In this document: positions 3,601 to 61,999 of the stretch, piece after piece
How positions within the stretch are numbered: the stretch's first letter is position 1
Layout of the letters: every line of letters begins with the position of its first letter
Assembly: GCF_963921235.1 (NCBI RefSeq)
Contig: NC_086108.1
Location: 40,674,001-40,738,000 of the forward strand
DNA length: 64,000 nt
Reading direction: 5' to 3'
Source of the DNA: Mobula hypostoma
Taxonomy: Eukaryota
Translations under genes and position numbers: made by a program
The notes under the pieces: generated by a model
Seen by the model: only the letters and a program-made list of their open reading frames with translations
Database searches by the model: none
Told to the model about the DNA's origin: nothing

Positions 3601-4030
3601 TCACCACATCCCCTCCTGATACTGACGACATATAAAGAGCATTTGAAGAATTTAATAAATTTGCAAAACATTCGGAATTTAGAGGAAAAAGACAGAAAAT
3701 GGGTTTAACGTGGTGAGCTCCATGTGGACTGGATTAAGCGATGTTCTGTGCACTGCAAGATCAGAGCTCCTCCTAGAAAAATAACAGATGAAACTGTACC
3801 AAGTAGTACAGGCAGATAAATACACTTGCAGATTTGTATTACATTTCTTAGTCTACTGTTAAAAGTGTGTATTTCTGAAACAACACGGATCTCTGGGTTT
3901 ATTTTTAGATTGTAATATTTTGAAACTGTTCAGGTAGATGATCTGGATAAATGTCATTGACACTCCAGATAAGTGTACATCAAATAGCATTTAGTGAAGC
4001 TCTTCAACAAAATTGTTTCAGGTAATTAGA

Positions 4031-4630
4031 TTTCAATCCCCATTCCTATTCTGACATGTAGTTCATGGCCTGCTCTATTGCCACAACGAGGCCACTCTCA
4101 GGGTGGGGGAGCAATACCTCATTCTGTCTGGGTAGCCTCAAATCTGATAGCATGAATATTAATTTCTCTAACTTCTGGCAATTTCTGCCCCACTCCCTTT
4201 TTCCCTTCCCCATTCTGGCTCCTCTTTTACCTCTTCTCTTCTCATCTGCCCATCACCTCTCCCTGGTGCCCCTCCTCCTCCCCCCCCCCTTTTGCCATGG
4301 TTCATTCTCCTCTCCTATCAAATTCCCTCTTCTTCAGTCCTTTACCTGTTCCATCTTTCACCACCCAGCTTCTCAATTCATCCCCTCTCTCCCACCCATC
4401 TACCTTCTCTCACCTGGCTTCACCTATGACCTTCGACCTTGTACTCCTCCCCCTCCCCCACCTTCCTATTCTGGCTTCGTCATTCTTCCTTTCCAGTCCT
4501 GATGAAGGGTCTCTGCCCAAAACATCAGCTCTTTATTCCTTTCCATAGATGCTGCCTGACCTGCTGAGTTCCTCCAGCAATTTGTTTCTGTTGCTCTGGA
4601 TTTCCTGCATTTCAGAAACTCCTGTATTTC
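4031..4630 (+). mobile_element. 5'-truncated Penelope-like retroelement (degenerate GIY-YIG end plus terminal repeat)
   Basis: Colinear with 52841-53440: decayed ...LGSLKSDSMNINFSNF, a pyrimidine-rich tract, a degenerate hammerhead (cagtcctgatgaagggtctctgcccaaaac) and gatgctgcctgacctgctgagttcctccagca. Confidence 0.9.
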
Positions 4631-7289
4631 AGAATTAGATGCTGGGATGGATGAATGATGGGAATTCACCTACACTGCCTGCATTTGAATGCACCCAGAT
4701 GGAAAAATTTAAATGATTCCTCTTTCGCCCTTCTATGGCCTAGATAGAATTTCGCTTGGACTGCCTCAAGCATTTCTGGTAGTCAGAATGGTGTCTCTAA
4801 TTTTGCACCAGGATGAGTTGTCATTCAGATCAACTGGGAATAGGGCGCAAAATGAAATGCTTGTTCAGCAGCCTGCACGTCTGTGGTCAAACCTGACAGA
4901 CCCTCAGAACATGATCGAGGAAAGCCTATAAAATGGATTAGTGAGAAAAAAAAATGTGACTTTTTTTTCCCCAATGTGTAGATCAGGCATGTGGACATTT
5001 TGGTGTGTGCACCATTTCTGGTCTGTTCTGCCCAGGAGGAAATTTGCTGGGGGACATGTAGCTATAATTCACCTCAACACTGATGCCATTTCCCCATTTT
5101 AATTGGTGATAAGGTCATGTTTCCGACTCACCAATGGAGACCAGATCAGAAAATCAACACCTTCGCTGTTCACTCACAGAGAAAAAAAAAGAGTAAACCA
5201 TGCAGGAAGTTAAGAATCATGCATGAATTTGAAAGCTCCCCAGAGATCTTCTATTACCTTCATTGCCTACCCAGCATTGATTTCAATGTGCTGCCCTTTC
5301 AGACCGGTAGCAAGAGTGCATATCAGAGCAATGTGTGCAATGCATGCTGAAATCTCTGGCCCTGGCTACCACTGACCTGATTGCAACTCAGGACCCGCAA
5401 CGCACCATAAAAATCCATCCCTATGACCTAATTTCACCCCCTCCCCGACCCACCCAGCTTCCCTCATCTTCATGCAGTGCAATTGCCATGGAGGGAGCTC
5501 TTCAACTGTGCCAACCCTCTCTCACAGGTCGAGTTAGCTCAGGCAGCAAACGCCAACTCAAACTGCATCTGCATAAAGAGGCTTCTCAAGCTTATTAATG
5601 GGGTGAGGGTGGCCAATTTATTTTGGGATGCGGTATTGCTCAATATGTTGCAGCAAACACTCTGCCCATTTAGTGTGCCAAAATGGATACATTCTAGGTT
5701 ATTGTGCTTAATCCAGAACACGAATGCCTCGACATCGGTGACCGGTGTATGAACTCAAGACCCCAACCATCAGCAAATAAGTTTCTTCTAGCTGTTGCGT
5801 GATTTGGTTTCACATTCAGCAGCTGAGACAAGGTTATGGTATACAATGTTATAAGATCATACATCAATTGCTTTAACAGACAGATGTTTGAAAGAAAAAT
5901 GCATGCCAAGTATTAGAGGATAAAACCATTTAAAAGGCAATTAAAATAATTCAGGGCAATAATCATTCTTCACGTTGACTACTTCTGCTAATTGATTGGT
6001 AGCTACATCATAACATTCCCTTCTGAAGCTTGAATGATATAATGATATTGAAGAATTTTGAATAATGTTGAAGAGTTTTTAATGGTGTAGCAAAAGCAAA
6101 CTGCAAACATTTGCATTTCATTGTGAGAAACCACAACTCACCTATTAAGTACATATATTTTTTCCCCACAGATGAACTAAGAGATTCGCAATTCATGAGT
6201 GAGAGCATTTTAGAATTCACATTGTCCTAATCTTTTTCCTCTTCTTGAGCCTCTCCTCTGTACAGAGATTAATGAGAATGACTGAATGATTTCAGTTGTG
6301 ACTCATGGGACTTCATGAAGTATTTAATGGGAATCAAGCAGCAGACTAAAGTCTGAAGCAGAAGCCTGAAATTTTATTGTTATCTGTTTGGAAACTGGGA
6401 AGGCCCCAGTGTAGCAGTTGAGAGATTTGGCATCACCATTCATACATGCACACAGTTGGATTACTTCCACAAACAAAAACCGAGCACTACTTGCATGAAT
6501 CAAATGCCTGACTACTGTGCTACTGGCACTCTGCAAAGAAATCATCTCACTTTACTGAGCGAATTACTGGCTGGGCTAAACCTCGAGCGATCCAAAAACG
6601 CAGCATTACCTCCTGGCCACTGGAGGAGCACTGCTGCTGCAGTCAATCCTTCGCAGAGTCAAACCTTTTGTTCCTCGAGTTCTCCCATGGGATAAAGCAG
6701 TGATTACGTTACCGCTCCTCGGCATCACCACTGCCTTCGCTTTTATTCAGTAGCAGTCCCTTTTGTCTTGTCTAACCAATCCCCCTGAATATATGAGGAC
6801 CATCGTGCAGAAGCAGACCTCCAACCCAGTACATCTGCAAAGGCATTTTTGTGCCTCTTACTTTATCTCATTTATTTCCAAACCTTCACTTTCCTATCAA
6901 TGAACATTGACTCTATGCACAGCTTGAGACAAACCATTCCAGTCATTTTGTAAGTGCCTGTTCCCATGCAAAAAGCAAACACAAGTTTAATGTTTCCATC
7001 TCCCTATCTTAGCCATTGAACAATAGTGGAGGACATGTTTGCTTATCTGGAAGCTTAATTAAATTAGTTTTATCTCCCTGGTTTGTAATAAGCCTTTTGG
7101 CAATGTAAACTTCTTCAGTAATCGGCAACCAAACGACTAATGATCTTGCACATCTTATTTCCATTTGATGTAAAGCTTTCCTCCCTAAACTTAACGATGA
7201 ATTTCTATCAAGAAAAGCTGGCCAGAACGATGTTGGACTGAAGAGCAATGAGTTGTAGCTGTAATATGGTAATATAGCTGTAATTGTGA

Positions 7290-13559: not shown

Positions 13560-15240
13560 ATTCAAGAGTCATGATTCAAGACTCAAGGTTGTTTAATGTA
13601 ATTTCCTGTATACAAGTGTAAAGGAGAACAAAATAATTGTTACTCTCGATCTGATACAGCACAAATGATAAAGAACTCAATACACAATAATTATAAATAC
13701 ATAAAATGGCTTATACACTTTGATTGATTTTATGTCCATAAAATGACTCCAGGCTGTGCATAAGGTGACTGACAGGAAATAAAGTTGTAGTGGAGGTGTG
13801 GATCAGCCTTACTGCTTGGGGAAAGTAACTGAGTCCGGTGGTCCTGGCATGGATACTATGAAGCCTCCTCCCTGACGGAGTGGGACAAACAGTCTATGAG
13901 CAGGGTGGGTGAGATCCTTCACGATGTTACTGGCCCTCGTCTGCAACCTTTCTGAATACATGTCCTCAACGGTGGATAGGCTAGTGCTGGTGATGCTTTA
14001 AGCAGTTTTGACTACCCACTGTAGAGCCTTTCTGTCCACTGCAGTGCAGTTTCCGCATCACGCAGTCATGCAGCTTGTCTGTAGAATGACGCGAGTATGG
14101 ATGTACAAAGCCCGGCTCTCTTTAGCCTCCTCAAGAAGTAGAAGAGGCTAAAGGGATGAAGTGCTTCAAGTTTCCACTGTTGTGCCGCCGATGTAAAGGG
14201 CGGGGGTGGGGGTGGGGTGAGTGGTGCAAATTGTCCTGAAATACATAACCTTCTCCTTTGTTTTGTTAACATTAAGGAAGAGGTTATTTGCCAAACACCA
14301 GGCCTCTAGCTCTTCCACCTCCTCCCTGTAGGCCATTCCATTGCTGTCGGTAATGAGCCCACTACTGTTGTATCAACAATGAACTTGACAATGTGATTGC
14401 TGGGGTGTTTGGCCGTACAGTCACGTGTGAGCAGAGTGTACAGCAACAGGCTCAGCACACTGCCCTGGGGAGCACCCGCGTTAACAGCGATGTGCAGGAG
14501 GAGCAGTTGTGCATCCTGACTATCTGAGGTCTGTTCGTTAGGAAGTCCAACACCCAGTTCACAGTGATAGATTTAGACTGAGGAGTAGGTGTTTGCTCAC
14601 CAAGTCAGTGAGACAAAAGTGTTCTGAAATCTAGAAACAGCATTCATAGCCAGGTGCATGATAGATGCTATGACATCTGCCATAGAGCGGTTCTGACTGT
14701 AAGCATATTGGTGAGTGTCCAATGTAGCAGGGATGGTGTTTTTGATATGCGCCATTATAGGTGTTCAATGCACTTCATGATGATTGGAGTCAATGCCATT
14801 GGGTTGTAGACATTTAGTTCTAAAGGTTAGTTATTTGGTACAGGGATGATGGTGGTTGATTTGAAGTATGTGGGGACAGCAGCCTGGATAGGCGAAGTGT
14901 TGAAGATGTCCATGAAGACATCAGTGAACTGGTGTGCACACTCCCGGGGTACTCGGCCTGGGATGTTGTCCGGCCCGGTTGACTCCCTGCAGAATCCTGC
15001 TGTGACAGAGTGGCTGCTCACCTGGGAGGAATTGGCCCAGCTTTGTGTTGCATGCCTCGAAGCATGCATAGAAGTTGTTTAGAGCATCAGAGAGGGAAGT
15101 ATCACTGGTACAGTCAATGCAGTTTCCCCCCCTCCCCCCTTTGTGTAGTCTGTATTGCCCTTGATGCCCTGCCACATATGCTAGGGATCGCTATCGGACA
15201 GGTGTCCATAACACAGTCCCTGCCCCAAAAATAGTTCAGG
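13560..15240 (-). mobile_element. Rex1/Babar-type LINE fragment (decayed RT)
   Basis: Minus-strand peptide [47 protein letters not shown], a degenerate NHIVKF..DTTVVG near 14.36-14.40 kb, and a ttcaaga tail repeat at ~13560-13590. Confidence 0.9.
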
Positions 15241-16935
15241 AAGGTACCTGTTGAGTACCCTGGTTCAGATTCTTTAAAACTTCCAACCCTTGCAAGTATT
15301 TTTCAAAAAAAAAGAGAAGAGAAGAGAATTAGGTTCTCCAGGAGCTATCCCTTTCTTGGAGCACTTAGAGGAATAGTTCTGGAGGCTGGAAGCCTTTTCC
15401 TTGTAGAAGATGGTTACAGCAACTTCCTTACAAGTCATATAGGGAAGAACTATTCAATAACTTAATTACAATAATGAGTATCACCGTGGTAATTTTTTCA
15501 GATGGGAATGGATCATTTTCATCCCAAGTAGAAGCTTAATGAACACATTAATAGTTGGCTGGAAACTTACAGAATCACCTTATACACTTCTCTTGGTACA
15601 GCTGGAATTAGAATGGAAGTCAGGAAAAAAATTCCTCACGGATATATTTAGGGAGAGTTATCTACTATCTACTATCTGATGCTACTATCTGAGCATCAAC
15701 ATTTTCCGTTGATGAGACACCCACCACAGCATTTGGTACACACCTGTACTAGAATTAGAGGACATCAGAAACTACTTTACCTGGGGCACGTTAAGTTACA
15801 GGAGGCTGATTATTTTCATGCTACAACCTGTCAAACACTGGCATATTTGAAATGAATCCAAGTTACTCAAGGAAGGGCTCGAAACCCAGGGGCTACTTTT
15901 CTAACTTTACTGAGTAGCACATGTCGTTTCTTCAAAAAGAAAATGAAAACACGTACTGAAATCCTAATGCCAAATGGAGACTGAAACCAAGAAATTCTCA
16001 AAATATCCCCCCAGTGTTCAAATCAATATTGCATGGATCATCTTCAATTCAGGTTCTAATCTAAAACAGGTGCAAAAATGGCTAGTCCATGCAACAGCTT
16101 TCAATGGGAAAAAAAAAATCAGGCAATAATTATTGTGCCCCGATTTCCCTGAAGTAGGAATAGTGACTTGGTGGAAGGAAATTACTTTTCTGAGCAGGAG
16201 GCTGGTGCATTTTATTAAGTTCAATGCAAAGCAATTTTCAATTGCACATGTGACAGAATTCTTAAAGTCAAACAATACCAGAACCCATTTCTACAGGATG
16301 CCAGAAATTTAAAAATTGATGATAATCACTGCTTTGAACATGCTGAAGGACAACCTTGGTTCGTGATTTGGAGTTTTTATAGAGAGGCTACAGGAATAGA
16401 AGTTGCCATTCTTGCAATGTAAATCTTATGATATTGCTCCATCTTCATCAAACTCAATAGGGTGATCCTAGATCTGTTCTAACTAGATTTCACAAAAGTG
16501 TAAAGCATATTGGTTTAAATGACTACAAGACTGAAAAATTGCATTTGATAGCTTGAATTGTTCAAATTATTTTCAAAGTTCGCAAGAAAATGGTCACTGC
16601 ACCAGATTTTCTGTCTGATTCTTCATCTCACCCTCTCTACTTCTTTTGCAAAACTAATCGTAAAACTAAACATTTCTACACTCTCATACATATTCAATCA
16701 CACTGTGGAATGAAAATATACAGCCATGGTAGTTCTCTACTCTTTTGGCTATCTCCACTAAGCTATTCAATCCTAATTCCAACTATGCTTCTTTTCCCAG
16801 ACTTTCAAATATAAAAAAACACCCTGAACTCCGGATCTGAAGCAGAACAAAGTTTGTATGAAGCTTTTCATCAGCATCAAGGCTAAAATTCATGGGAGGA
16901 TACCTCTTTTCTAGAAAAGGAACCAGTGAGGAGTA

Positions 16936-17040
16936 TTTAAACGCAAACAACAGGAATTCTGCAGATGCTGGAAATTCAAGCAACATACATCAAAGTTGCT
17001 GGTGAACGCAGCAGGCCAAGCAGCATCTATAGGAAGAGGA
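16936..17040 (-). mobile_element. Short PLE terminal-repeat fragment
   Basis: aaagttgctggtgaacgcagcaggcc is the reverse complement of 53407-53432. Possible TSD gaggagta at 16928-16935 and 17036-17043. Confidence 0.8.
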
Positions 17041-17051
17041 GTAAGCACTTC

Positions 17052-18938: not shown

Positions 18939-20249
18939 CAGACATCCCACCTCTCCTGGAAGATCTGGGAGTCTCCTGCATATCGATAGTGGCTCCCTGA
19001 TGCCTGGAAATTATATACAATATCCCGGAAATAGATTTTTTTGAGAGGGAGAGGGAGAGCGAGCATCCTGATTGGTCTGTCTTTGTGCTAAGCGTGGTCC
19101 CCCACCACTGGGCCGTGAGGAAACTATGATTTGGCGATATGAAACGATACGAGTCATTTGCACCTTTCCTCATTCCCTGTCACACACTGTTGAACTTGAA
19201 CGCACGCGAGGTCATTATGCGCGCGTCATCCATGTCAGCGCGGGAAAAAGATCAACTCCTCGAGCTTGTAAATGACAGTGGGCTGAAAAGTATGTTTGAC
19301 ATAACATCTCTGCCGGCATTCTGGGTCAACAGCATTCTTGATCAAAGTCAAGATATCCTAAGATAGCCACGGAAGCACTGAAAACATTGCTTCCATTTCC
19401 AATACCATATCGCTGCGAAGTGGAGTTTTCTGCAATGAATGCAACGAAAACTGAATTGCGGAATAGACTGGACATAAGGAACCCCGTTCGAGTATCGCTG
19501 TCTCCCATCATCCCTCGATAGGACCGTCTTGTTGCAGGGAAACAAGCCCAGGGCTCCCACTGATTCAGCGATATTGGTGTGTTGCAATGATTTTATATGT
19601 TCATACAGGGAAAGTATGCACTGTGTGTTTAATATCCAAACGTTACTTAAAATGTTATGATGCTATTGACTTATCACCTATATTCCGGTCATGATTAACA
19701 CCCCCCGTCAGCTGGTCCGCAAGAATATTGTCATTATTAATCCGGTCTGCGGTGCACAAAATGTTGGGGACCCCTGCTAAGTAGACCTATCAGTTTTCTC
19801 TGTGGGCGGGCTTTACAATCGACCTCAAAAATAATGACAGTGTTGCTCGCTGCACTGTTTGCAACAGCGACTTTTCTATTGCCCATGGTGAGTTAAAATG
19901 TAAAAGACATGTTTAGGTGAATTTAACAGGTGTCATTACAGCATAGCTAACGTTATTTAAACTAGCTGGCTAGCTGCTAAGGAGCTCTCTATTGATGTCC
20001 TACTTGATGAGGCCAAACTCCCTGTAGACTTGCTTAAAGTTGTAATAGAATAAACATGATAATAGAATAGAATATAAGTACATATTTTAATGTCACATTT
20101 GCTGCATATACCCAACATGGTTTACAGATTAGACAAAAACACTAAACAAAGTATTACATACACCCTTGGAGGTCGACGGTGGGTGGGGGGTGCGGGGGTG
20201 CTACCTCCCTGGAATGAGTTTTTGCAGGGTGGGAAGGGTGGGATGCCTG
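18939..20249 (+). mobile_element. Non-autonomous DNA transposon (probably hAT) with a residual zinc-finger-like transposase N-terminus
   Basis: TIRs cagacatcccacc (18939-18951) / ggtgggatgcctg (20237-20249). 19830-19913 translates NNDSVARCTVCNSDFSIAHGELKCKRHV (BED-finger-like). Confidence 0.7.
19093..19776 (+). mobile_element. Internally deleted hAT Charlie/Buster transposon
   Basis: Ends cgtggtcccc... and ...ggggacccctg. 19232-19563 encodes a disrupted hAT dimerisation domain (DQLLEL..DSGLK..F...SLPAFW / YPKIATEALKTLLPFP..Y.CE..FSAM..TKT..RNRLD...KQAQGSH*). Confidence 0.9.
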
Positions 20250-31959: not shown

Positions 31960-32150
31960 AGAAAAACTGCAGCTGCTGAAAATCTTAAATTTAAACAAAA
32001 TAGAAATTTCTCAAGGTAGCAGCTGTAAAGAGAGCAAAATAGAGCTCTGGGTCTCAGGAATGAAGGATCCCTGACTTGAAACATGATCTGTTTTCTCCCT
32101 AAGCTGATGCTGTCTGACCTGCTGAGCACATCCAACATTTTTCATTTCTA
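31960..32150. mobile_element. Degenerate palindromic PLE-derived element
   Basis: An antisense terminus (aactgcagctgctgaaaatc) followed by a sense terminus (gatgctgtctgacctgctgagcacatccaacattttt), with a decayed hammerhead-like centre. Confidence 0.6.
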
Positions 32151-34145: not shown

Positions 34146-37100
34146 AGAACTACTTTGCTATGATCATTCGGGATGCTTGGCAGATGGCAGAAAGATTTTC
34201 GAGCAGCCAAAATCAAAGCTCAATCCCCAGTGACATTCAACATTTTATTCTTACAACAATATTTAGGGGTGGAGCATTTAAAACTAACATGTAATTTTCT
34301 TCAGAAACATGGCTTCTTAACTGATCATCCTTAATTAACAATCTATTAACTCAGAGAAGTTTTTAATTAAAGTTGCCTTCTTGAGACACAATTTCAAAAT
34401 TTAATATTGTTAAATTGGTGTTTTCAGAATGAAGACTAATAGTTAGATAGTAAAAATTTGCCCCCCATTTTAAAGTGTGAATAGGTTGGCCTCTTTGTTA
34501 TTTGAGGTACAAGATCTACACAACCAATACTAAGTCTCAATATGTTAAACAAAAATACTCTGCTCAGCATTAAAGGAAATCTATGATATGAGGTGGATTA
34601 AACAATGAGAATTTCTAATACATAGCATTTGAAGTTATGGTTTCTTAATCGTGAAGTATGGCTAGAGAGCAAAGTTTTATTTAATCTTCCCACTTCCAGT
34701 CAACCATTTCCTGTTTTTGATAAAAACTGTACAAAGGTCAACTTGACTACCGCATTTTGTCATCTTTAATAATATATCTGGAATAATATTCTGGGACCAA
34801 AAGGGATAAAGTACCACGGTTTAGTTGCCCATACTGGATTTCTTCTTCTTGTAACTAATCTATTCAAATTGCAGTTGAATCTGCAATAAACTTATATTAT
34901 TTGACCAGCTTACAAACATTATTCTATTCTTGTTGGAGAACACAGCTCAGTACTTCAGATTGTATCCTTGCACCCAGTTAAAAAATACAACGGAATACAG
35001 CTGGAGGAAAAATGAGGTGAAAATTTCTGTGCACGTGCTAGATGAGGTGATCTAGTTGGAATTAAAAGGTGTTCTTGTTCCTATGGCCCAACATTCCCAG
35101 TCGTTACCCTTTCCTATTGTGAACCAATTGAACTTGAACCAATTGAACTTTAGGCCATTGAAGTTTGTTCATCTCTGTTCACATTCATTCAAATTTCTGG
35201 CATCTATTATTTGCCCCCACCCCACCCACACATAAATGAGTTAATGTCAGAAATTATATGCCTTTGAAAAAAAATGTGAAATTGCAACAATAATATTTCA
35301 AATGGCTTGGTGGACACACATGGAACCAACATTTTAAAGACGTAATCTTTGATCCTAGCCAAAAAGGCAAAATTAACATTTATCCCTGAAAGAACAAACT
35401 ATTGGAATCTCTGCTTCCAGTAACGATCTTGCAATCTCAGATACTGGAGTGGGCAGTGCATCAACAAGACAAGGGTTGACTGCAACCTTTCCTTACCAAA
35501 TAATCCTACCCCCTTGTGCTGTGATCAATAGTCACTTAGTCCTTTAACTGTACAGAGCAAAATTTGACAGGTTCAAAAGACAAAACAGATTGCAAACTTG
35601 AATCCATGTTCCAGATATCTAAAATTTAGTTTTGAGAGCTCTATTGAAAAGTACCTTGTTCAGTTACACTAGGTTCACTCTTCAACAAGAACATGCAATT
35701 CTACCACCTTTCACTTCCTGGCTTGAATTTAAATGCTTTCAAAATTCACTACTGAACACAGCAGTTAAAAGTCAAAAGATTGCTCTGATTAAAAAAAAAG
35801 CTTCAGGGTGGTTAAAAGTTGGTTCTTGTAATGTACAACTTTAAAATATAAATTATGATCCACAAACAAGAAAATCACCACCCTGTCTGAGAGCTTGGTA
35901 AAAAAGGCTATGTGACCAAGAGTGGAACTAATATGGCCTGGGCTTTGCAGGATGTCCCTTAGTCACAACCAAACTATTCATTACCTAGTACTTCCACCAA
36001 TATAAAACAGCAAAGGGAAACATCACACTGGGTGAAAGAAAACATTAAACTCCGCTACAGGGCATTTGCATTGCCAAAATTAAATTTATTCTCCTAGCTG
36101 ATCTATTCAATCAGCAGAGTGTACTGTAAATTTATATTAACCACTTTACCAAGATTTGTTGGAAAACATAGCTCAGGTTTTCACACTGCTCCATGCACGC
36201 AGTTAAACAGTGACTGTGGAAACGATTTAAGTCATCAGGAGACTTTTGAAAAAAAAAATCTGGAAAGTGTATTTTGACTTGCTGCTTAAATTCTTTCCTG
36301 CCTGTTCATAAAGATTAAATACACCACGTTAAATTTCTTAAAAGTGGAGGGGGGGGGGCATAAAATGTGCTTTTAATAATTTACTGTCTAACGGGGAAAT
36401 GGCTGTGTAGCACACCGTCAAAGCACTCTGATTAGGAACAAGAATCTCTTACTGATTTTTATGTGTAACTGCCTACTTGTGTTTTCCGAGTCAGCAGCGG
36501 TAATGATATCCAGCTTTTACTAAAAGGGGATGGATTAGTTCACTGGATGGAGTAACGTTTTAATGTATAGTTTAGATGGAGCAATGCGGCTTTTCAGCAA
36601 AGCTCTGTATGTCTGCTGCAATGCATCCAGACAGTTAGGCTCTCAGCATGTCTGGGCTTTTGATTTTAAATGCATGTCTTCGCAGAATTCAATTGCTTGC
36701 TGCTCAATTATTGATTGTCACGAGGTCTCGCTTTGTCTTTCAGAAACAGTGGCAAAATGGATTACAGGGTGCTACAGGGAGGGGGGTGTATTTCTCATGA
36801 AGAAGCGCACCAGGAAAGTTACTGATAATGAAGTCCATGATTAAAATAAAATGCATCGTCTCCAACCATGCACGAAAACGGCGGTCGTGAAATTAGAGAA
36901 ACGGTTGGGAAGGGAAGGAGGGAGTGAAGAAATAAGAAACAATGTAAGGAATACCAAACCAAACGCTGTCCAAGTCTCATGCTGAAGATAGTCTGTACGA
37001 CCCTATTTTCAAATTTCCCAACTCCAGAGTGGCAAGGCAGGAGGGGAAAAGGGCCCCCTTTACAGACAGTTGAGAAGATTTTTCACAGAACGTGATACTT

Positions 37101-39979
37101 CTCCGTTATCCACCAGGTAGCGCGGAACCGTCACTCTTCATTTTACTACACCGAACAGTACGCGGTTCATAAAATTTGCAGACATGCGGCCGTTTACAAA
37201 AACTGGTGGCCAATCTAGGAGTTGTAAAACAATTCAACGTGCCACATGAATTGGTGGGAGAGGCCAACGCTCACTTCCAAAGCCACGTTCAATTTAACAT
37301 TTGTCATGGTAACAGCCCAAGTGCTCTTTTCAGTCGTGTCACTTCTCCCTCCCCATGGAGGCGACCAGGTACCTTAAACCCCCTGAGGGCCGTCTCTGGT
37401 TATTTAATTTGAAAGAAAAGGTAGAGTTAAAAGCGCGCTCTCAGGGCACAAGATTTTCCCCCCACAAAACAGAACCAAGTAACACACACAAAATGCTGGA
37501 GGAACTGAGCAGGTCAGGCAGCATCGGAGTACTGAGAACAGCTACCGCATTTTTCTACACTTGATAAGTTAAATGCGGGTTGAAATCACATTAGAGGCAC
37601 GTCGGGGCTCTCAGGGCATCCGAAAGGGCTGAAGTAAAAGCTGAGATTGGCATTTCAGACGGGAGGAGCACCAGAGGAGACGGGCAGGGGAGTAGGCTGC
37701 GGCTTGCATGGCTGCCCAGCTCCATGTGTAGCCGGCAGTCAGAGGTCCCACCCGCCAGAGGTCAAGTAGCTGGCTGCACCTGGGCGCGGGGGGAGACGAT
37801 GAAGAGGGCAGGGGCTGACCCGGCCGAGGGCACTGACTGCACACACTTTGCACCGTATGAAAAGTCCAGACAGCCCCTGCGGATTCATCATGTGACACGC
37901 GCCTTTCTTCTTTCCCAGCCGCGGTAATCCACAAAATACACTCAAGATCACCAGCAGTGTAATTGTTCTCCCACCCGTTGCAAGAAATACGGGTATTTTT
38001 TTAAAAAACTTTAAAAATTAGATTGCACAGAAAGCCTGTCTTATGACTACCTTTCAAATTCCATCAAGCCGATCTAAATCCTCACCGTTAGAAGCTAGGA
38101 GCCTCGTTAGACGGCAGAAGAGCCAATGCAGCGAGGAGCTTCTCTGCGGGCGTGGTGCTCGTCTCTTTCAGACGTCAGATACTTTTGTCATTCAAAAAAG
38201 CTACCACGGGTTACACGAGTTCTGCGTGGCGTACCTATGCCTACGAGCGCCTTTCCGCCACCTCCTCCGCAGTGAGCTACAGCCTCTCCCTATGCAGTTA
38301 CACACACCTGGCTTCTCGGTTACGCGAACCGTGAACGATACCTTTGGTGGCATTTCCTCTTGTCACTTCCAGTCCGCCTTTACACACCTCCTCTCATCCT
38401 CCCATCACACCCGCTCGAATTGCGGGCAAGCGACTGGAATACAAGTGCAGGTCCGGGTAGTAAGAGGGTTTCTTCATATCATGAGGAGCCCATAAGCGTT
38501 TGAAGACCAAATTTTCCTTGCAGTAATGACATGATTCATTTGTCTGGAGATGTGCAATAATGCTTGCTAAGATGCAATGCATCTAAAGGCCTGTAATTCA
38601 AAGCGCCGTTAATCTCCTATTTTTTCTTCAAAAAATGTTAACAGTTTAAAAGTTCTCATGTTTGACGGATGCTTGGGAACTGGCACAAATGGGATTTTAC
38701 TCTGTATTCAATGACCAGGGTAAGAAACCGGCAAGCCATCCCGTCGTCACTCCATAACAGTGCGGAGAGTTTGAAAGTTATGCCAGTCGCGAAAACTTAT
38801 GACGGAATATTTACGTTGCAGCCATACTGAAGCGGGAAATGTCCGCAATAGATCGATTAAGTTCAAGAGCAGCAGCCCCGGAGCCCTCGACGTACTGTAA
38901 ATGATGTGTCAGAAATGAGGTAGCGCCGAAGCAAGTACTGCATAAAAAATGTTCAATTTCTCTACCCCCCCCCATCGCAAAGGGAGACAAAGAGCAGATT
39001 GATCCCCTTAGTCTGACAAAGGTCCCAGTGACTGCACACACGAGCCCTTCCTCTGCATATGGTCAATTAGTATTGAAAATACTCAGCTGATTTCATTCGC
39101 TGGAAACTTTAAGCTGGGCCTTATGAGCAGGAAGAATGATGTTATTGAAAGGAAGAGTCTCATCTAAATAATAAAAGGGCACGCGGCCATCTGGTCTGGT
39201 CAAACTCTGTACAAAGTTTACTGCAGCGACTGTCTCTCTCCTGCATGTCCTGTCGTTTTTGAGGTGCCTTAATGTAGGCAGATCCAAAAACGACTGGTCG
39301 TGTAACATTTTTAAAAATCCACCCTTTTAGTGTTTGCAGTATATGGAAGCTCACTGTAGTCGATCTCTCGGTACAGAAAATACACTCGACCTGCATTGCG
39401 TGCAGGCTCCTTGATTGTAGGGGAAAAGCTGGCTGGCGGCCAGACAGGCGAAAGCTCTGTTGATCATTATGTCTAGCCTTCAGGTGTCTCAGCTCACAGT
39501 GGGTGGTGGTGAAGGGGAAGGAGAGAGAGAGGGAGGGAGGAGGGGAATGGGGGGGGTGAAGGAGGAGTCGCCGTAGATGACATGACGGCAGACAAAGAAA
39601 GGGGAAAAAACGCCTATATAAAAAAAGCTCATTCCCTTGTTACATGAATGTATGTACTCTATTTTATCTGTGCATTCTCCCGAGAACTGGAGACCGATTT
39701 AAGCCTGTCCCAATAAAGTCCAGCTTCTTTCAGGATTTACTGGCCGCTGCTCAGTGTTGTACGTAGAAATGCATAGGAAAGATTAATTAATGTAAACACA
39801 CACAACAAAGAGAGAAAAAAATCCCCTCCTGCTTGGCCTTTGTCTGAATTTCATAGTCTTGCAGCTGTGTCTCTGTAAACCACTGCCCTTTCAGCAACTC
39901 GGTGGACGAACTGAACTCGGAGTTGGCTGGACAGGCTTCAGCCCCTCGCCGTGGGGTCAGTTGAGTTTGTTCTACTTAC

Positions 39980-40075
39980 TGCTCACAATGCCACTGATTG
40001 GACACGGCTGATGTGTTATCACAAGCATCAGACTTCATCTCCAGCTCTGCCTGAATAATGCAGCGGGCTGCCTCC
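39980..40075 (-). other. Candidate alternative first exon B with an open ATG
   Basis: Upstream TTTAAA (~40100) and a G-rich box. ATG at 40038 reads MKSDACDNTSAVSNQWHCE up to donor GCA|gtaagt (39979-39974). Peptide not recognised. Confidence 0.4.
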
Positions 40076-40302
40076 ACTGCAGCGGGCCGGCAGCTCCCTT
40101 AAACTGCCGACTCTTAATTCCCACCCCCCCCACCTCAAACAAAAGTGATTTAAGGTCAAACTGCAGAATGTGAGCTGTTTCCCCACAAACTTTAAACGTT
40201 TTTCCAATGTATTTATTTACAAGGTTATGTGACCGTTTAACAAACATTTGCTGAGTCGGTGTGTGGATCTGTGTAGTTAAGTGCATTAAAAGAAATACTT
40301 AC

Positions 40303-40478
40303 AGTTCAGTTGACAGTATAGATTCTTATCAATCTTCGTTAAGCTGTACAGTGCCTTTCAGTTTTAATATTGGGTGAGAAGGGAAAGGGTGAGGAAGTCC
40401 CATTAATTATACAAAGAAGCATGCTTCTATTTACAGTCAGACACTTGTGTGCAGACATCCCATTGCTCCAGTATTGCT
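40303..40478 (-). other. Candidate non-coding first exon A
   Basis: Starts ~25-30 nt downstream of the TATA-like box (start inferred) and ends at donor ACT|gtaagt (40302-40297). Confidence 0.45.
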
Positions 40479-40500
40479 TCATCTGCTGCACTGAATTGAA

Positions 40501-40640
40501 CTATATAACACCCATGTGAAAGACAGGGGAAATATAGTCACGTGGAGCACACAGACTCGTACCATTGGCTCAGCAGATAATCTTTAAGAGAGACATTTTT
40601 TCCTCCATTGGCCGCAATGGAAGATTGAAGGCGGGCGGTT
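40501..40640 (-). promoter_or_regulatory. Core/proximal promoter motif cluster
   Basis: In minus-strand order: GC box (40630-40638), two CCAAT boxes (40607-40611, 40564-40568), E-box CACGTG (40539-40544) and TATA-like TTATATAG (40501-40508). Confidence 0.6.
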
Positions 40641-41139
40641 CTTCCCAGTCAGAGCCTCCAGTTTTGTAAAAAAATACACAGGATAATGACTGTGTGGGTG
40701 TTAGGCTGACAGGAGAATGGGTCGGGAGAAAGGGTTGAAGCCATCGTTAAGTTGAGATCAGAGGAACAAGAACGGGAAGATTTGCGACCCCAACATTAGC
40801 TATCTTACTAATATATCTGCGTTACTGGTTTGTGAATGACTAACCTGAGCCCTGAGCGAAATGATGGGGCCGAGCAGCATAGCCTACTCGCGCTGAACTC
40901 GAATTACTTACTGAGGGGAGAAATCTTAATTGCGTTTTAAGTTAATCCTGATGGGATCTAATAGGGTTTAACTAATCACTGGATTTTAAAATGATACTCT
41001 CTAAACCAGGAGGTCTTTAATTTGTTAATGCTCTATGAATCGAAGATCAATTTTTCATCACTACTTTGAGACTCGTTCTCTGGTCCCTCGGTCCCGTTCA
41101 CTCGAAGCTGCTGACTACCCAACCTCATCGCCTAGTCAC

Positions 41140-41338
41140 AAACAAGAGAAAATGTACAGAGGCTGGAAACCCAAGCCACACCCACACACTGCTGGAGGAA
41201 CTCAGCAGGCCAGGCAGCATCCGTGGGAAAGGGTACAGGACCGCTGAAAGGTCTTGGTCCGAAACGTCGACTGTCCTCTTTCCCATGGACGCAGAGAGGC
41301 CCGCTGAGTTCCTCCAGCAGCGTGTGGGTGTTGCTCAT
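41140..41338. mobile_element. Palindromic PLE-derived element
   Basis: Perfect 18-bp inverted arms ctgctggaggaactcagc (41189-41206) / gctgagttcctccagcag (41303-41320). The centre holds the hammerhead 3' half cgaaacgtcgactgt. Confidence 0.85.
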
Positions 41339-43435: not shown

Positions 43436-43815
43436 AACAAAAACAGAAAATGCCAGAAATGCTCAGCAGATCAGGCAGCAAAATGGAGAGAGAAACAGAA
43501 TTCATACTTCAAGTTGAGGAATGTTGATTTAGAACTGGGCCAGAGAGACGATAGGTTAGTTCTTAGTAATAGAGCTGGAATGGATCGGCTAAAGAGAATA
43601 TATTTGGTAAGGCATCTAGCATAGATGGATATCATTTGTTCCACCCACCCCTCAATCAATCCCTCTACAACTTCAAACTCTCTTGCTTTCCCTCTTTCAC
43701 AGTTCTGCTGAATTGCCCTAGATCTGAAGGATTTACTCTGTGTCTCTTTCCAGAGATGCTGCTTGATCTGTTGTACTTCCATTTTTAAAAATTTTACTTA
43801 AGACTTCTAGCATGT
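43436..43815. mobile_element. Degenerate inverted PLE-terminus pair with ~200 bp spacer
   Basis: aatgctcagcagatcaggcagca at the left and gatgctgcttgatctgttgtacttcca at the right. Confidence 0.6.
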
Positions 43816-43839
43816 TTTTGTTATCATTTGATAATATTT

Positions 43840-44800: not shown

Positions 44801-45988
44801 AGACTTGGGGTGTATGGAGTCGCAGGGAGGGGTAGCACCTCTGGTGGGGGAGCATGTCACGACCTTTTCAAGGCGGTTAGTCCAACGTTGGTCCCCAGCT
44901 GGCACTCAGCTCTCACCTGTGGCTCCCCGTAGTTGTTTGCATGCGACAGCGGCCACACCCTGGGCAACGGCTAAACCAGGTGAGGGAAGCCGACGGGTCT
45001 CAAACCCTCGGTGAGATAGGGAGTTGTCTATCCCAGCATGTGAAGACAGACTCCGGCGGATTGAGCGGATGAAACCAATGGAAGGTCTAACGGTCAAGAA
45101 GGCGGTCTCTGCAAGCGTCGTGGAACGTGTAGAGCAGGACAAGACACAGAAGACGTCCTGGTCATCCAGTGCGCCTAATCCCATCGGGAGGAGAGAGAGC
45201 AGCGCGCCGCGCGTGCACAGCCCTCCGGTGAAAAATGATATCGTATCCATTAAATAGGGGCTGTGGACAATTGTGATTTGATGGAGACGGACGTGAAAGC
45301 ACAGAGGAACATTTGGAAAAATTTCTGAAACGCTCGTTTACTGCTGTCATTACTGCATGTTCAGGAATCTTTTGGAGGGAAGGCCTCAAAATCCCCGGCT
45401 TTGTCTGCTGTTGGTGACTGAGATGGAGGTCGAATCGCTCGGATAGAGATGGCGCTCAGTACCCGGTGTCAGAGAGCTGATCAGTGCTCGAAGTTTTCGG
45501 ATGACTGAGAGTCGGACCGTGGTCGGGTATGGCAGGGAGAGTTTTTCTTCCTTCTCCCGTCTGCGTGAGATGTGGGACATTTGAGAGCCTTTGAACTTTT
45601 ACTGTGCTCATGGACTTCTTCATCAAGTTATGGTATTGTTGCACTGTTGTAGCTATATGTTATAATTATGTGGTTTTGTTAGTTTTTTTTTCAGTCTTGG
45701 TCTGTCCTCTGTTTTGTGACATGACACCAGAGGAAATAATGTATCATTTATTAATGCATGCATTACTAAATGACAATAAAAGTGGACTGCGTGTCTTCAT
45801 AATCTAATCATAATCTAATCTTCAGCCATCTCGACTCTGTCTTGCCACTGGATCCAGATGGGAATTGGGAAGAGAGAGTGAGGCTGACACTGCGCAACTC
45901 TCCCTCATCTAAATCCAAATCATGCGCTAGTCTCAACACCATCATAATGGTGTCGAGGTCCTCATCGACGCTGATGATGGACGAACAC
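44801..45988 (+). mobile_element. Non-autonomous retroposon, probably RTE-derived, with 9-bp TSD
   Basis: TSD atggccaca at 44792-44800 and 45989-45997, a structured 5' region and a 3' stem-loop (45932-45957). The RTE affiliation is from resemblance only. Confidence 0.75.
45186..45820 (+). mobile_element. Young CpG-rich non-autonomous retroposon with (taatc)n tail, nested in the previous element
   Basis: Ends aaatgacaataaaagtggactgcgtgtcttcataatctaatc. The same 3' end occurs as a ~70-bp truncated copy at 41686-41758. Confidence 0.75.
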
Positions 45989-46149
45989 ATGGCCACATGG
46001 CTTACCTCTGGGTCCTCCGGTTTCCATGCCAAACTCAAAGGCATGCATTTTAGTGGATTCATTCTCCACTAACTTGCCCCTGGTGCATGCAGGGAGAACA
46101 AAATGACACTGGCATAAAAGGGTGCCTGAAGGTGAGCGTTGTCACTGAG

Positions 46150-47062: not shown

Positions 47063-47819
47063 AAGGAAAGTAACATAAAAGAAAGCAAGAGGTTACATGT
47101 GTTTTTTTTGCACAAAGAAATGTTTTAAATGAGGTCACCCTCCCATTATAGAAGCTTCCATGCTTCTTTACTCCCACTGCCTGCCAAAACACACTGCAGC
47201 CCATACAGAGGAAGAGCTCTTTGTCACCTTTTGCTTTGCCAGTATGTCATTCTGAGGACCAGGGATGTAAAATTCCTGCTCCATAGAGTACGGCGTGATT
47301 GGTGCGCAGTACACAAAATGGACAGGAGTGAATCACAATCCACTTTGTACTTTAGAGTGCCAAACAATCTGCTGGAAGAACTCACCTAGCTGAGCAGCAT
47401 CTATGGGAGGAAGGGACATCTTGAGTTGAAACCCTGCACCAGGATCATTTGATGATTGCTTCAGATTCCTGCATCTGCAGTCTATTGTGTCTTTTTTTCC
47501 AATCAGAAAGGAATTCATGTTGTGTAATGAGCAGGCTGTTCAATTCCTATTATCCCCTTTGAAAAAGCACGATTTCAGATCAATTTCACCTCTGTGATAT
47601 CTTTATTGGAGAAGAAGAGAACCTTTATTCCACCCGGCCATACCAGAAACTCTTGTCCACTGGAGAGGCCTTCCTGCAGGATCTGACAGGCACTGGAAAC
47701 ATGGCACTAAATTCTGTTTACGCTACCTTAACATGACTAATTGTAATAATTCCTAATGCCACAATTCATGAATTCAGCTGAAAGAAGGGGCTAAGTTTAG
47801 AAAAGGAAAAGAAAGATTT

Positions 47820-50485: not shown

Positions 50486-52840
50486 TTACCTTGCCTGTTT
50501 GTGTGCCTGTCTAAATTCCCCTTAAATGTTGCTTTCTATTTCTCTTCCTAATTTTTCCATGAGCACCGGATAGCAGGCACCTACACCCTACTACCTCCAT
50601 GTAAAAAAATGCCTTGCAAATTGTTTTAATCTTTCCTCTTCTATGCCCTTTAGTACTTGACATTTCTGCAGTCAGAAAAAGACTATCTTTGCCTCTCATA
50701 AGTTCATATACAATGTATCAATAAAAATAACAAATGAGCTTTCCAGATACAGTGTCTAAAAGACGTTTGTATTTGTAGGGCTTTTAAGTAGACTGAGGTA
50801 GATTGAGATGACCAAATGCATATAATTTAAAGTGATCTGAATTACATAAAATGTTTTCCTTAACAAAGTTTTATCAGGCAAGAATGTAAAAGAAAATAAA
50901 ATAGAAAATGCTGGAAAATATAGGCCAGTTAGGGAGCATCTGGACAAAGAGAAAAGTTAATATTTCAGATCTATGGCTCTTCATTGGTTTTCCAGCACCT
51001 AGAATGTCATTCTTGAAGAGGTTCCCTGCTCTCTGACAAGACATCTGCCTGTCTCTTTCACCTGATTTCCAACATCTGCGGTTTTGTTTTGATTTTCAAA
51101 TTTAAAAGAATAATTGTCAATAACATAAAAGAAACAGAAAGAGTTAGCATAAACTCAAAGCGTAGGTACCTTAATTGTTTTTGTCAGTTTTTAGACTAAT
51201 TTCAGCTGGATGGGCAATGGTTAGCACAGACTCAATGGGCTGAAGGGCCTGTTCTTGTCTTTCTATGACTGTGAAAACCAGTGGAGGGGGTGGGAGGAAA
51301 GAACTTGTGAAATGGAAACCTTATCATTGAGCCTACAATAAAAAGGTCAAATACTCCAGAACATAGCAATTCTTTTATTCTTTAGAAGAGATTAAAAAAA
51401 GCACAAAATAAACAATCATGCTATTTTACATTACCTGAAATTAGTAAACATTTAAAAAAATATAAATAATCAAATTATGATGAACTGCACGAATTAAAGT
51501 TTTGAACAACGACTGTGCAATTGTGGAGACTGAGATGTTGTAGATTATAACTTTCATAAAATGTATTTCACAAAAGGAGGTACGCAAGAGGCTTGTAGAG
51601 ATGTGAGGATGCACCAGCTTAAAGAGCATCCAGTCCAAGAATGAATAGAGGAGAAAAACTCAGAAGGAGTAAAGGATTGCCGTTGCAATTAGGAGAGCAT
51701 GTTTATAAGTATGCTTCAGAAAGGAGGACCTCTATCTGTTTTCCAGTAAATAACTTGGTTTGATGACAATTTTAATGGTATAATACTGACATTTTCTGAT
51801 CTACCTGATTTCAAGGACATGGTAAAATATGAAGAAGACCCAGGAGGCTGCAAAAGACCATTGCACATTAGCAGAGACCAAGTGTGAAATGAAGATTTTG
51901 GAAAGGAAATGTCTTATCCACAGTAATGGAATGTAACATACAATTAAAAAGAAAAGTGTAAATGATAATATTCTTAGCAGAAGTACAGAGGGAGTTCAGA
52001 ATAAACAAGGAATTAAGAGTGAGGCTGCATTCAGTGAAGCCATTAATGAAAAATGAAGTTCTGAGGCTGATTCATGGTGGTGATATGAAAGGAAGATTGT
52101 ACTCCAATCAATATTTTACTGGGTTCCACTAAGCAATGATGCCATGTGATAAAGGAAGAATGAATGGCCATCACTTATTTAGCTTTTTGCACAACTTCTA
52201 TTGGGATGCATGAAAGCCATTGATCACTTCAGTAAAGTTCAGTAAGCAGGAGAGTAGGTCTGAAAATTTTCACAATGTGAGCTCATACAAACAGCAACGT
52301 AGTAACCACCAGATAACTGATCTTAAATGTCATTGGACGGCTGCGCATTAGACAGGCAATTGCATGCAACTCTCCTTCTCCTATTTGGATTGATATTGGG
52401 AGCAGAAGGAACCTGCCTTCAGGAAGTGTGATTATGGTTATGAAAAAGGCAACAAGTACTGACTCTTTTCTTTCAGTGTGACATTACATGTTAAACAGAA
52501 TCCATTAACTTGTTCAAGGTTTCAAAAGGTTTTGAAGGGGTAATTAGTGAATGATTGTTTCTGCTATTTTAGTATCAAGAGCTTAGAGACTCATGATATT
52601 ACTATAATGATGAAAAGAGAATGTAGAAGGCCTTCTTTAAGAATAGCTTTCCAAAAGTACCTATTGAGGCTGGAATTATGCGGTACTCAAGAGAGAACTT
52701 GATGAGCACTTGAAAAGGGGAAATATAAATAATACAAGGAAACCAGAGGGGTATTGCACTAACACTGGCTAAATGGTTTCATGGCAACCACAAGACACAC
52801 ATTGAAAGGAATGGCAAGACAAAACAGATAGGCTCAGTGA

Positions 52841-53440
52841 CACCTACGCTCTATCTGCCAGAGAAAGCAGGATCTCCCAGTGGCCATACATTTTAATTCC
52901 ACGTCCCATTCCCATTCTGACATGTCTATCCACGGCCTCCTCTACTGTCAAGATGAAGCCACACTCAGGTTGGAGGAACAACACCTCATATTCCGTCTGG
53001 GTAGCCTCCAACCTGATGGCATGAACATTGACTTCTCTAACTTCCGTTAGTGCCCCACCTCCCCTTCGTACCCCATCTGTTATTTATTTATTATTATTAT
53101 ATATTTTTTTCTCTCTCTTTTTCTCCCTCTGTCCCTCTCACTATACTCCTTGCCCATCCTCTGGGATTCCCCCCTCCCCCTTTCTTTCTCCCTAGGCCTC
53201 CCGCCCCATGTTCCTTTCATATCCCTTTTTGCCAATCAGCTGTCCAGCTCTTAGCTTCATCCCTCCCCCTTCTGTCTTCTCCTATCATTTCAGATCTCCG
53301 CTCCTACTCCCACTTTCAAATCTCTTACTATCTCTTCTTTCAGTTAGTCCTGACGAAGGGTCTCGACCCGAAACGTCGACTGTACCTCTTCCTGTAGATG
53401 CTGCCCGGCCTGCTGCGTTCACCAGCAACTTTTATGTGTG
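52841..53440 (+). mobile_element. Recent 5'-truncated Penelope-like retroelement with 11-bp TSD
   Basis: TSD aggctcagtga at 52830-52840 and 53441-53451. 52841-53050 is an uninterrupted frame HLRSICQRKQDLPVAIHFNSTSHSHSDMSIHGLLYCQDEATLRLEEQHLIFRLGSLQPDGMNIDFSNFR* (C-terminus of a PLE GIY-YIG endonuclease). Confidence 0.95.
53346..53381 (+). ncRNA. Minimal type I hammerhead ribozyme in the PLE terminal repeat
   Basis: Stem I agtc/gact, core CUGACGA plus one extra A, stem II GGGU-cucg-ACCC, GAAA, palindromic ACGU stem III, and cleavage triplet GUC (53375-53377). Confidence 0.85.
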
Positions 53441-54499
53441 AGGCTCAGTGATGCCGCCTTTTCCCACTAAGCAATGCAATCCCATTCCCCATTTCTAGAA
53501 AGTGCTTGTAATCCTTCCCTGGGTAAAGTAAGAAAGTGCTAGAGGAAGGAAATGCTGCGTAGGTTTATGTAAATCTCTTGATAACTCTATAACGTATCAT
53601 CAACTTTCAGGTTGCCACGTATACCATTTGTTAACTGAATTAACCAATGAATCCTGAGATGGCACTGCCTGGTCTAAACGTAATACTTTAAGTCAAAATT
53701 TATACTTTTACAAGTTGTTTCTGTTTCAATCATCTTCCCAGTTTGCAGCTCCTTTACGTCCCACCGTTCCTTGTTACCTTTGCTCAGGAGCTTGTCAGGT
53801 TCCTTCTCCCAGAACTGCAGCACATCCATGGTTTCCCCCAGGCCAAAGGGTCTTTAGCCAATCGGTCTAGCGTATTAAGTCACAGATGCAGAGTGGAATG
53901 TCAATTACTGAACACAGGAGATGTTTCCTCAGCTTTCTTTCTCATGGTTTGCTCAGACTGTCCATCTTTCAACAATGTGGCTGATTGTAGACGCAAGGAT
54001 TTTTATAAAGGGACACCACATTTGTGCTGCAAATCAAGTGAAAGTACTGGCTTTGAATAAGACTGCTATCATTAATAAGGAAGCATTCCTATTTTCTTCA
54101 ATTTCCTGGCTTTCTCTCTTCCTTCCCTTGAAACCTGTTCTGTCCTTATCATCTACTCTGTAAAAGCTGGAAACCCCCTTATATCTCATCCAAACATAAG
54201 TTTTTAATGTGGAGTCTGAGAGTATCAGCAGACTTTTCTGCTGTTGGAGCAAGCTGGTCACCTGCTGGGACTCATCCGCATATTCAGAACAACGTTGGAA
54301 GATGCATCTGCACCCACAACTATTGCAGAATGTTCCCATTGGAAGATTTCAGAAAGGAATCTGGAAAGTATTTGAATAACATTGCAAGGTGTTTGGCAAA
54401 AACTGAGAATTGAGCTAACCAGATTAGTCTTGGAACCTGTTGGTAATGAGTCATTGAGCTGAGGAGCTTCCTTCTGTACAACTGTGACTCCTGGATTCA

Positions 54500-60941: not shown

Positions 60942-61400
60942 AAAGTCCAAGTTCAAGTTTATTGTCATCTGACTGTACATATGAAATAATGTTCTTCCAG
61001 ACTACGGTATACCCACAGAACATACTGTATATCACACACAGCATATAAACCAAAATATTATTCAATAAATAATTTAATAAAATATAATTCAAAATGCATG
61101 TAGTAAAGTGAAGATGATCGTCTCGGCAGTTTTTACTGTCCTCTGTAGGGTCTTGTGGTCCAATGCCTTGCAGTTTCTGTTCCACCTAACGAAGCTGCCA
61201 GACAGGACACTCTCGATGGTGCTCCTGTGGAAAGTTGTTAGAATGGAGGCAGGGAGACTTGCATGCCTCCACCGCCTCTGAAAGTGGAGACACTGCTGTG
61301 CCTTCTTGACTAGTGAGGAGGTGTTGATGGTCCGGGTTAGATCGTCCATTTTGTGCACACCAAGGAACTTCGTGCTCTTCACTCTCTCCCTGGCAGAGCC
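60942..61400 (-). mobile_element. Rex1/Babar-type LINE 3' fragment
   Basis: ORF 61089-61382: KFLGVH..DDLT..INTSSLVKKAQQCLHF...ILTTFHRSTIESVLSG...LQRTVKTAE. Tail repeat aagttcaagtttattgtcat. Confidence 0.9.
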
Positions 61401-61999
61401 AGTGTATAAAACACATAAGGCAAGCCAGTGGATCCCGAATGGTAAACTTAGGAGTCAATGACAAGATCAGAGGCAGCACTATGATGGATACGCACTGTGA
61501 AACCCACACTGAGGGGAGGGGGTTGCAGGCACACATTTTCAGAGAAGCTTATCTGCAGGAGAATGGTTGTGCTGGATTCCTTGGTCTGGTTGTTTCTTCT
61601 CAAGGTATCCCTTCTGAGGTCTTGCTTCTGTAATAATGGCCTATGCCAGTCCCCAGTCAGGTCATGCAATGTACAAGTGTTTGTAATTTGTGCAAATGAC
61701 ATCAAAGATATACAGAACTTCGCATGCGATTTGCTAACACTGTACATGTCCCAATGCTTCTGTTTGGAAGCGGAGAACACAGAACTAGTTGAGAAGCCTC
61801 AGCAGGGTGACACTGAGCAATCCAGTTTATGGGCGCATACCTTTGCGCAGCACACCAAAACCTTGACCCTCCATCAAAGCACTTCTAAGTCTCTGTACTT
61901 CTGTGGAACAATTTGGAGAGCAAATTCATCCCCTGAGGTATTAATGAAGTCTGTGATAAGAGCAGATTTCTTTAAAATCACTCAATATTTTTCAGGGTT

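Follow-up and report, generated by a model that had tools for sequence, protein, structure and literature searches.

Minimal type I hammerhead ribozymes were described in the pseudo-LTRs of metazoan Penelope-like elements (PLEs) by Cervera and De la Pena in 2014 (PMC4209133). According to the available part of that paper, cleavage by a single minimal motif from S. mansoni was undetectable, and that by dimers and trimers was low. A second well-described system is PAc (Poseidon of Anolis carolinensis; PMC11167929), for which the accessible text reports that the hammerhead does not cleave without the element's protein and is dispensable for insertion, that core mutants abolish the protein-assisted cleavage, that the template is mainly RNA that has not been processed, and that the cut site is not marked by any RNA-seq read ends. 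The optional tail of PLEs is tied there to two internal reverse transcription (RT) start sites (Frangieh et al. 2024). The type I hammerheads of animal non-LTR retrozymes stem from PLE pseudo-LTRs, and PLE-derived hammerhead repeats are reported from one chondrichthyan genome (bioRxiv 10.64898/2026.07.22.740005, as far as its available part goes). The in vivo role of PLE hammerheads is still stated as unclear in the portion of PMC8557442 at hand.

We analyzed a hammerhead motif at positions 53346 to 53381 (plus strand) of a 64-kb window, that is, the whole stretch of 64,000 nucleotides of Mobula hypostoma DNA under study. As in the PLE minimal hammerheads of PMC4209133 (available part), there is a CUGANGA-H core with an extra base after A9, a G10.1-C11.1 pair, a loop-less palindromic stem III, and a short stem I, and the motif is located 3' of the endonuclease sequence in a 5'-truncated copy. 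The nearest motif published there is that of the Acropora digitifera Neptune element, which shares with it the CUGACGAA core, CGUC, and a stem II of 4 bp closed by a loop of 4 nt; the architecture is therefore not special to elasmobranchs, although the original prediction spoke of an elasmobranch variant. A stem II of 4 bp is near the lower limit of the class; in the remaining fish motifs of the list this stem measures 5 to 7 bp. None of the 56 motifs in the available part of the paper is from a cartilaginous fish.

Similar to PAc, the ray hammerhead lies near the 3' end of the insertion, copies span the cut site, and the 3' end occurs in two versions, one tailed and one tail-less. PAc, however, belongs to the Penelope/Poseidon clade and its ORF begins inside the ribozyme (PMC11167929, accessible text), whereas the ray relatives have a Neptune/Nematis linker and no conserved ORF start was found within the ribozyme; a ray copy has an additional tail of about 48 nt, compared with 30 to 40 nt in PAc. 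Retrozymes, as described in the available part of the preprint, are noncoding, tandemly repeated, and equipped with two or more ribozymes, whereas the ray copy is solitary and keeps endonuclease coding sequence. A retrozyme identity was rejected, given the single intact motif in the window and the coding remnant. Our literature search found no paper on this ray PLE family among the entries listed, and the supplements of the 2026 preprint may list the motif.

The PLE insertion and its surroundings

The insertion spans positions 52841 to 53440 (600 bp, 5' truncated). It is flanked by exact copies of the 11-nt target-site duplication (TSD) AGGCTCAGTGA at 52830..52840 and 53441..53451 (plus strand, spacing 611), as the original prediction of a 600-bp element with a perfect 11-bp TSD had it. 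Random pairs of 40-nt zones at the same spacing had an 11-mer in common in 10 of 20000 trials.

Positions 52841 to 53050 (plus strand) hold the last 69 codons and the stop of a PLE GIY-YIG endonuclease, as indicated by the open frame and by homology; the 69 codons (52841-53047) are uninterrupted and end at a TAG stop. The 5' truncation coincides with the first CCHH-motif His; this copy therefore lacks the RT as well as the GIY/YIG motifs. Because the frame starts 3' of the GIY, YIG, and conserved Arg positions, the 69 residues searched alone gave no Pfam match, and the enzyme cannot be made from the copy. Nine proteins among 16 candidates matched the 69-residue query, and five of them, from Hypanus sabinus and M. 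hypostoma, span it in full with 77 to 91% identity; in the alignment of the relatives, the 69 residues show 81 to 91% identity. In four of these five, RT motifs (YxDD-type) are followed by a weak GIY-YIG match (E values of 5e-4 to 2e-3, below the curated cutoff). The unbroken C-terminal frame claimed earlier is therefore real as an open run of 69 codons, but its GIY-YIG nature is seen only via the longer relatives.

All five aligned relatives contain a CX3-4CxxC linker, before which the present copy is truncated. A CX2-5CxxC linker between RT and endonuclease is given for the Neptune and Nematis clades in the available part of PMC8557442, and the element appears to be a Neptune/Nematis-type PLE, an assignment made by the linker motif in relatives rather than by a tree. 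The read-through tail of one Mobula protein (P0002) resembles translations of positions 53051..53345, which would place both in the same subfamily.

Downstream of the coding part, about 295 bases of pyrimidine-rich sequence (53051..53345, plus strand) form the 3' UTR, or pseudo-LTR body, and the 63 nt that follow the predicted cut (53378..53440, plus strand) lead to a short, "tail-less" 3' end. A small hairpin (TGCTG/CAGCA, 53411-53427, plus strand) stands 13 nt before this end; it is recognizable in most local copies, with varying loop lengths, and is a candidate RT start or binding signal. A GT coincides with the endonuclease stop, at 53046, and this codon is the last before protein P0003 diverges. 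An ORF from an ATG after 53397 was considered and rejected, as the subfamilies differ there by a one-base indel. A D. virilis-like pseudo-LTR intron ending at the hammerhead is no more than a weak lead, as the donor at 53046 scores only 3/6 and nine YAG candidates occur in 320 nt.

The search for host genes covered 204 open frames outside the element with a length of 68 amino acids or more, together with 6 shorter ones nearby; in these 210 frames, Pfam gave only two ALKBH8_N (PF09004) matches, at 14069-14305 and 61092-61454, both on the minus strand, and no host gene. These two matches are probably LINE remnants. Homology searches with the frames 53692-54057 (plus) and 53677-53853 (minus) yielded no homologs, and a crude exon scan, which small exons could escape, yielded nothing convincing; by Pfam, homology, and exon scans, neither a host gene nor a plus-strand transcript was identified at the insertion. 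CpG-rich stretches with observed/expected (o/e) values of 0.5 to 0.9, versus 0.32 overall, lie at 37000-41000, 19000-20000, and 45000-46000; the 37- to 41-kb block could be a CpG island, and no gene was identified there.

The hammerhead motif: structure, significance, and age

As read from the plus strand, the 5' strand of stem I (AGTC, 53346-49) is followed by the C3-A9 core CTGACGA (53350-56), by an extra A between A9 and 10.1 (53357), and by stem II, which consists of GGGT (53358-61), the loop CTCG, and ACCC (53366-69), with G53358-C53369 as the G10.1-C11.1 pair. Next come GAAA (G12 to A15.1, 53370-73), C15.2 (53374), G16.2 (53375), U16.1 (53376), and C17 (53377), and the 3' strand of stem I (GACT, 53378-81) completes the motif; the predicted cut falls between C53377 and G53378. 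Stem I (AGUC/GACU) has 4 bp, or 5 bp if the U-G pair 53345/53382 is added, and both the descriptor scan and the fold prediction have helix I closing the motif, which makes it type I. Stem III is the loop-less palindrome A-C-G-U at 53373-76, which forms no stable helix III. The core boxes CUGANGA, GAAA, and UH are kept at 11 of 11 positions, and the motif agrees everywhere with the published consensus of PLE minimal type I hammerheads (Fig. S3 of PMC4209133, in its available part). The core, the two 4-bp stems, and the ACGT stem III foreseen in the original prediction are thus all found, and the class that it named is borne out by the consensus match and by the position 3' of the endonuclease. 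A polypyrimidine tract with an AG at the 5' edge of stem I is observed in three subfamilies (53343 and 53347; about 4496; about 43702) and is reminiscent of the intron of D. virilis, whose end lies at helix I.

The bare core pattern is uninformative, with 4 matches in the window versus 11.8 expected. The full descriptor of core and stems, scanned over both strands of the 64 kb, gave 53346-53381 as its single match. Dinucleotide shuffles contained a match in 18 of 300 cases with stems of at least 3 bp and in 3 of 300 with stems of at least 4 bp; adding the loop-less stem III to the latter left 0 of 300. Both stems reached at least 3 bp in only 1 of 160 unrelated viral and metagenome core-box loci among the matches listed. 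A search with Rfam families against the window and the locus, a check proposed along with the original prediction, left the motif unmatched at the gathering score and at E values up to 10. The unmatched Rfam search, the ordinary folding energy of the 36-mer (z-score of -0.85), and the lack of a covariation signal in the local copies (see below) would suit a string that resembles a hammerhead by chance, but the shuffles, the core-box loci, and the location at the usual place of a PLE hammerhead, 3' of the endonuclease, make such an origin extremely improbable; position and consensus match effectively refute it. At the level of sequence, the motif is confirmed as a genuine, unmutated PLE minimal type I hammerhead and not a canonical Rfam hammerhead.

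Outside the ray, a relaxed motif pattern occurs in microbial collections at at least 42 viral and at least 118 metagenome loci. None of those 160 loci among the matches listed was matched by the element in blastn or tblastn, and tighter motif patterns and the protein query returned 0 matches in the microbial collections. Two metagenome loci (L142 and L068) have related motifs with a hammerhead core and a 5-bp stem II and are unrelated to the ray family by blast; they may be minimal hammerheads from animal PLEs present in these contigs.

The motif retains five CpGs, and the CpG o/e value of motif and tail, 0.93, exceeds those of the coding part (0.43), the window (0.32), and an older copy at 4490-4590 (0.0). 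CpG retention and the undamaged TSD suggest that the 52841-53440 copy is young relative to its neighbors. It is in this relative sense that the earlier description of the insertion as recent can be kept; 3 of the 69 residues depart from the majority of five relatives.

Predicted folding and the likelihood of cleavage

Folding was predicted from nearest-neighbor energies, which omit the tertiary core, and was computed without a control ribozyme of known activity. In the predicted monomer (36- and 45-mers), G5-A6-C7-G8 pairs with C15.2-G-U-C17 with a probability of 0.98 to 1.0, and stem II forms in short constructs with a probability of 0.85 to 1.0; on these models, the monomer would be locked by a helix between core and cut site. 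Open-core molecules are predicted to make up a fraction of about 0.001 when position 7 is C, compared with 2% for U and 46% for A. Similarly, the double hammerhead is predicted to lie 9.1 kcal/mol above two closed monomers, with values of 5.5 and 1.1 for U and A at position 7, respectively. With more flanking sequence (161 nt), the hammerhead stems and the locking helix are both nondominant (probabilities of 0.12 to 0.17). The combination of CUGACGA and CGUC is common to 4 of the 56 published motifs (PMC4209133, available part), which indicates that it is tolerated in other PLE families.

The descriptor scan of the window found no intact partner hammerhead in the 53 kb that precede the motif or in the 10.6 kb that follow it. 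Sequence on either side of the predicted cut is present in the insertion, whose template RNA was therefore uncut or religated. Judged by the modeled folds and by analogy with other PLE hammerheads, the lone copy at 53346-53381 is unlikely to cut RNA by itself. The cutting of plus-strand transcripts that had been suggested for it is hence not upheld: the motif is partnerless in the window, the monomer is predicted to be locked, and published single motifs are inactive without a partner or protein. A very high copy number could permit pairing in trans with other transcripts. Activity in vivo, with plus-strand transcripts cut at 53377/53378 via such trans pairing or via the element's protein, would accord with the 11 of 11 core positions and two intact stems, with the dimer and protein-assisted cleavage shown for other PLE hammerheads, and with the density of the family in the window. 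Against it stand the lack of an intact cis partner over the distances scanned, the closed fold predicted, the failure to find a host gene or transcript at the locus, and the Anolis RNA-seq data without cut ends (PMC11167929, accessible text), and we regard it as quite unlikely.

Local copies, fold-back insertions, and proposed history

A profile of the PLE 3' end, built from 14 local copies (its seeds are among the segments it then found), identified 18 family 3'-end segments in the window at E values up to 1, 17 of them below 0.001, and none in the reversed window. Nine local copies could be aligned over the ribozyme; only 53346-53381 has all 11 core positions, and the other eight keep 2 to 10, some of the low counts being due to truncation inside the motif. 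Over these nine mostly decayed copies, 62% of the stem cells are paired with one two-sided change, a level not above that of shuffles (407 to 486 of 500 as high); slid partners are 24 to 43% paired.

An older PLE copy of about 600 bp (4024-4640, plus strand, 8-bp TSD) runs from the endonuclease end to the tail, and it has lost every CpG of the motif region and changed G12. An insertion of the same subfamily (16928-17043, minus strand, 100 bp, 8-bp TSD) starts 8 to 12 nt after the hammerhead cut position and is the nearest in this respect, as none of the TSD-defined copies in the window begins at the cut site. It abuts what we presume to be a tRNA-derived SINE head. The copy proper (16936-17039) carries a long tail and ends about 48 nt further 3' than the 53440-type end. 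Longer-ending local copies of this kind fit the two-start optional tail of PMC11167929 (accessible text). Further old copies, at 31990-32150, 43440-43820, and 47360-47500, seem to be preceded by an inverted tail, and some of them belong to a subfamily that is more divergent. Overall, the PLE insertion traits in the window comprise TSDs, 5' truncation, longer-tailed copies, and inverted pseudo-LTR forms.

Two local PLE ends are folded back. The one at 41174-41335 has 65-nt inverted arms separated by a 32-nt gap, with a decayed hammerhead at the hairpin tip; a clean TSD was not found for it. The other, at 450-679 within 439-690, is bounded by the 11-bp TSD AAGTTGATTAC (439/680), is centered on the stem II hairpin, and contains a tandem duplication of a 30- to 31-nt tail unit in one arm. 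These two decayed fold-backs hint that stems I and II may also act as self-priming points of the cDNA. Carried further, the hammerhead helices would be mainly RT signals (a cDNA pause, fold-back, self-priming, or docking fold), with cleavage secondary or vestigial. The arms of 41174-41335 are exactly 32 nt apart, which is the distance that stem I encloses, and the center of 450-679 falls on stem II; in addition, insertion in vitro was unimpaired in hammerhead mutants (PMC11167929), and inverted PLE junction palindromes were read as self-priming (PMC3846280), each in the accessible part of the source. However, there are two clean cases only, both decayed, and any hairpin favors fold-back, so that the turns are possibly a by-product. 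Such a role also leaves unexplained the conservation of unpaired catalytic bases across phyla and the loss of protein-assisted cleavage in core mutants, and we consider a mainly structural function unlikely.

A combination of both functions is conceivable as a two-purpose switch, in which the RNA would be shut by the core/cut-site helix until a protein or partner opens it, while stems I and II of the cDNA would self-prime fold-backs. The lock predicted by the folding models is strongest with C at position 7, the base found here. We put this forward as a tentative proposal that is probably not the correct one.

We consider it very probable that the 52841-53440 copy is a 5'-truncated, dead-on-arrival PLE retrocopy that inherited a gated hammerhead and is, as a solitary copy, essentially noncutting. 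Its source would be a Neptune/Nematis-type PLE of very high abundance. In a first step, a staggered cut, presumably by the element's endonuclease, would have given rise to the 11-bp TSD observed. Reverse transcription would then have used the first of two starts, located within the RNA 63 nt downstream of the hammerhead cut; such an internal start is suggested by the Anolis PLE and by the longer ends of other copies. It would have passed through an uncut or religated hammerhead, in keeping with the site-spanning copy, and have ended in the endonuclease gene once 600 nt had been copied. The hammerhead would be inherited from the master element, in which, by comparison with other PLEs, it most likely is a gated ribozyme that is closed as a monomer and would cut only upon ACGU-mediated pairing of two tandem pseudo-LTR copies, upon refolding by the element's protein, or both. 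The solitary copy would be intact through youth and not through selection, and meaningful RNA cutting by it is most likely absent.

The ray motif is an ordinary further case of a class described since 2014, and a single copy is of little weight. It offers a clean, unmutated sequence suited to assay. Were lone copies to cut host transcripts, a family of such abundance would cause RNA breaks across the genome; our results speak against this. The more useful lead is statistical, namely, where many copies have their 5' junctions and their fold-back turns in relation to the cut site and the stems. If the two-purpose switch is true, the copies would constitute a fossil record in which junctions at the cut site (+1) and turn-points at the stems can be counted against each other, and the in vivo function of PLE hammerheads would become testable from sequence alone.
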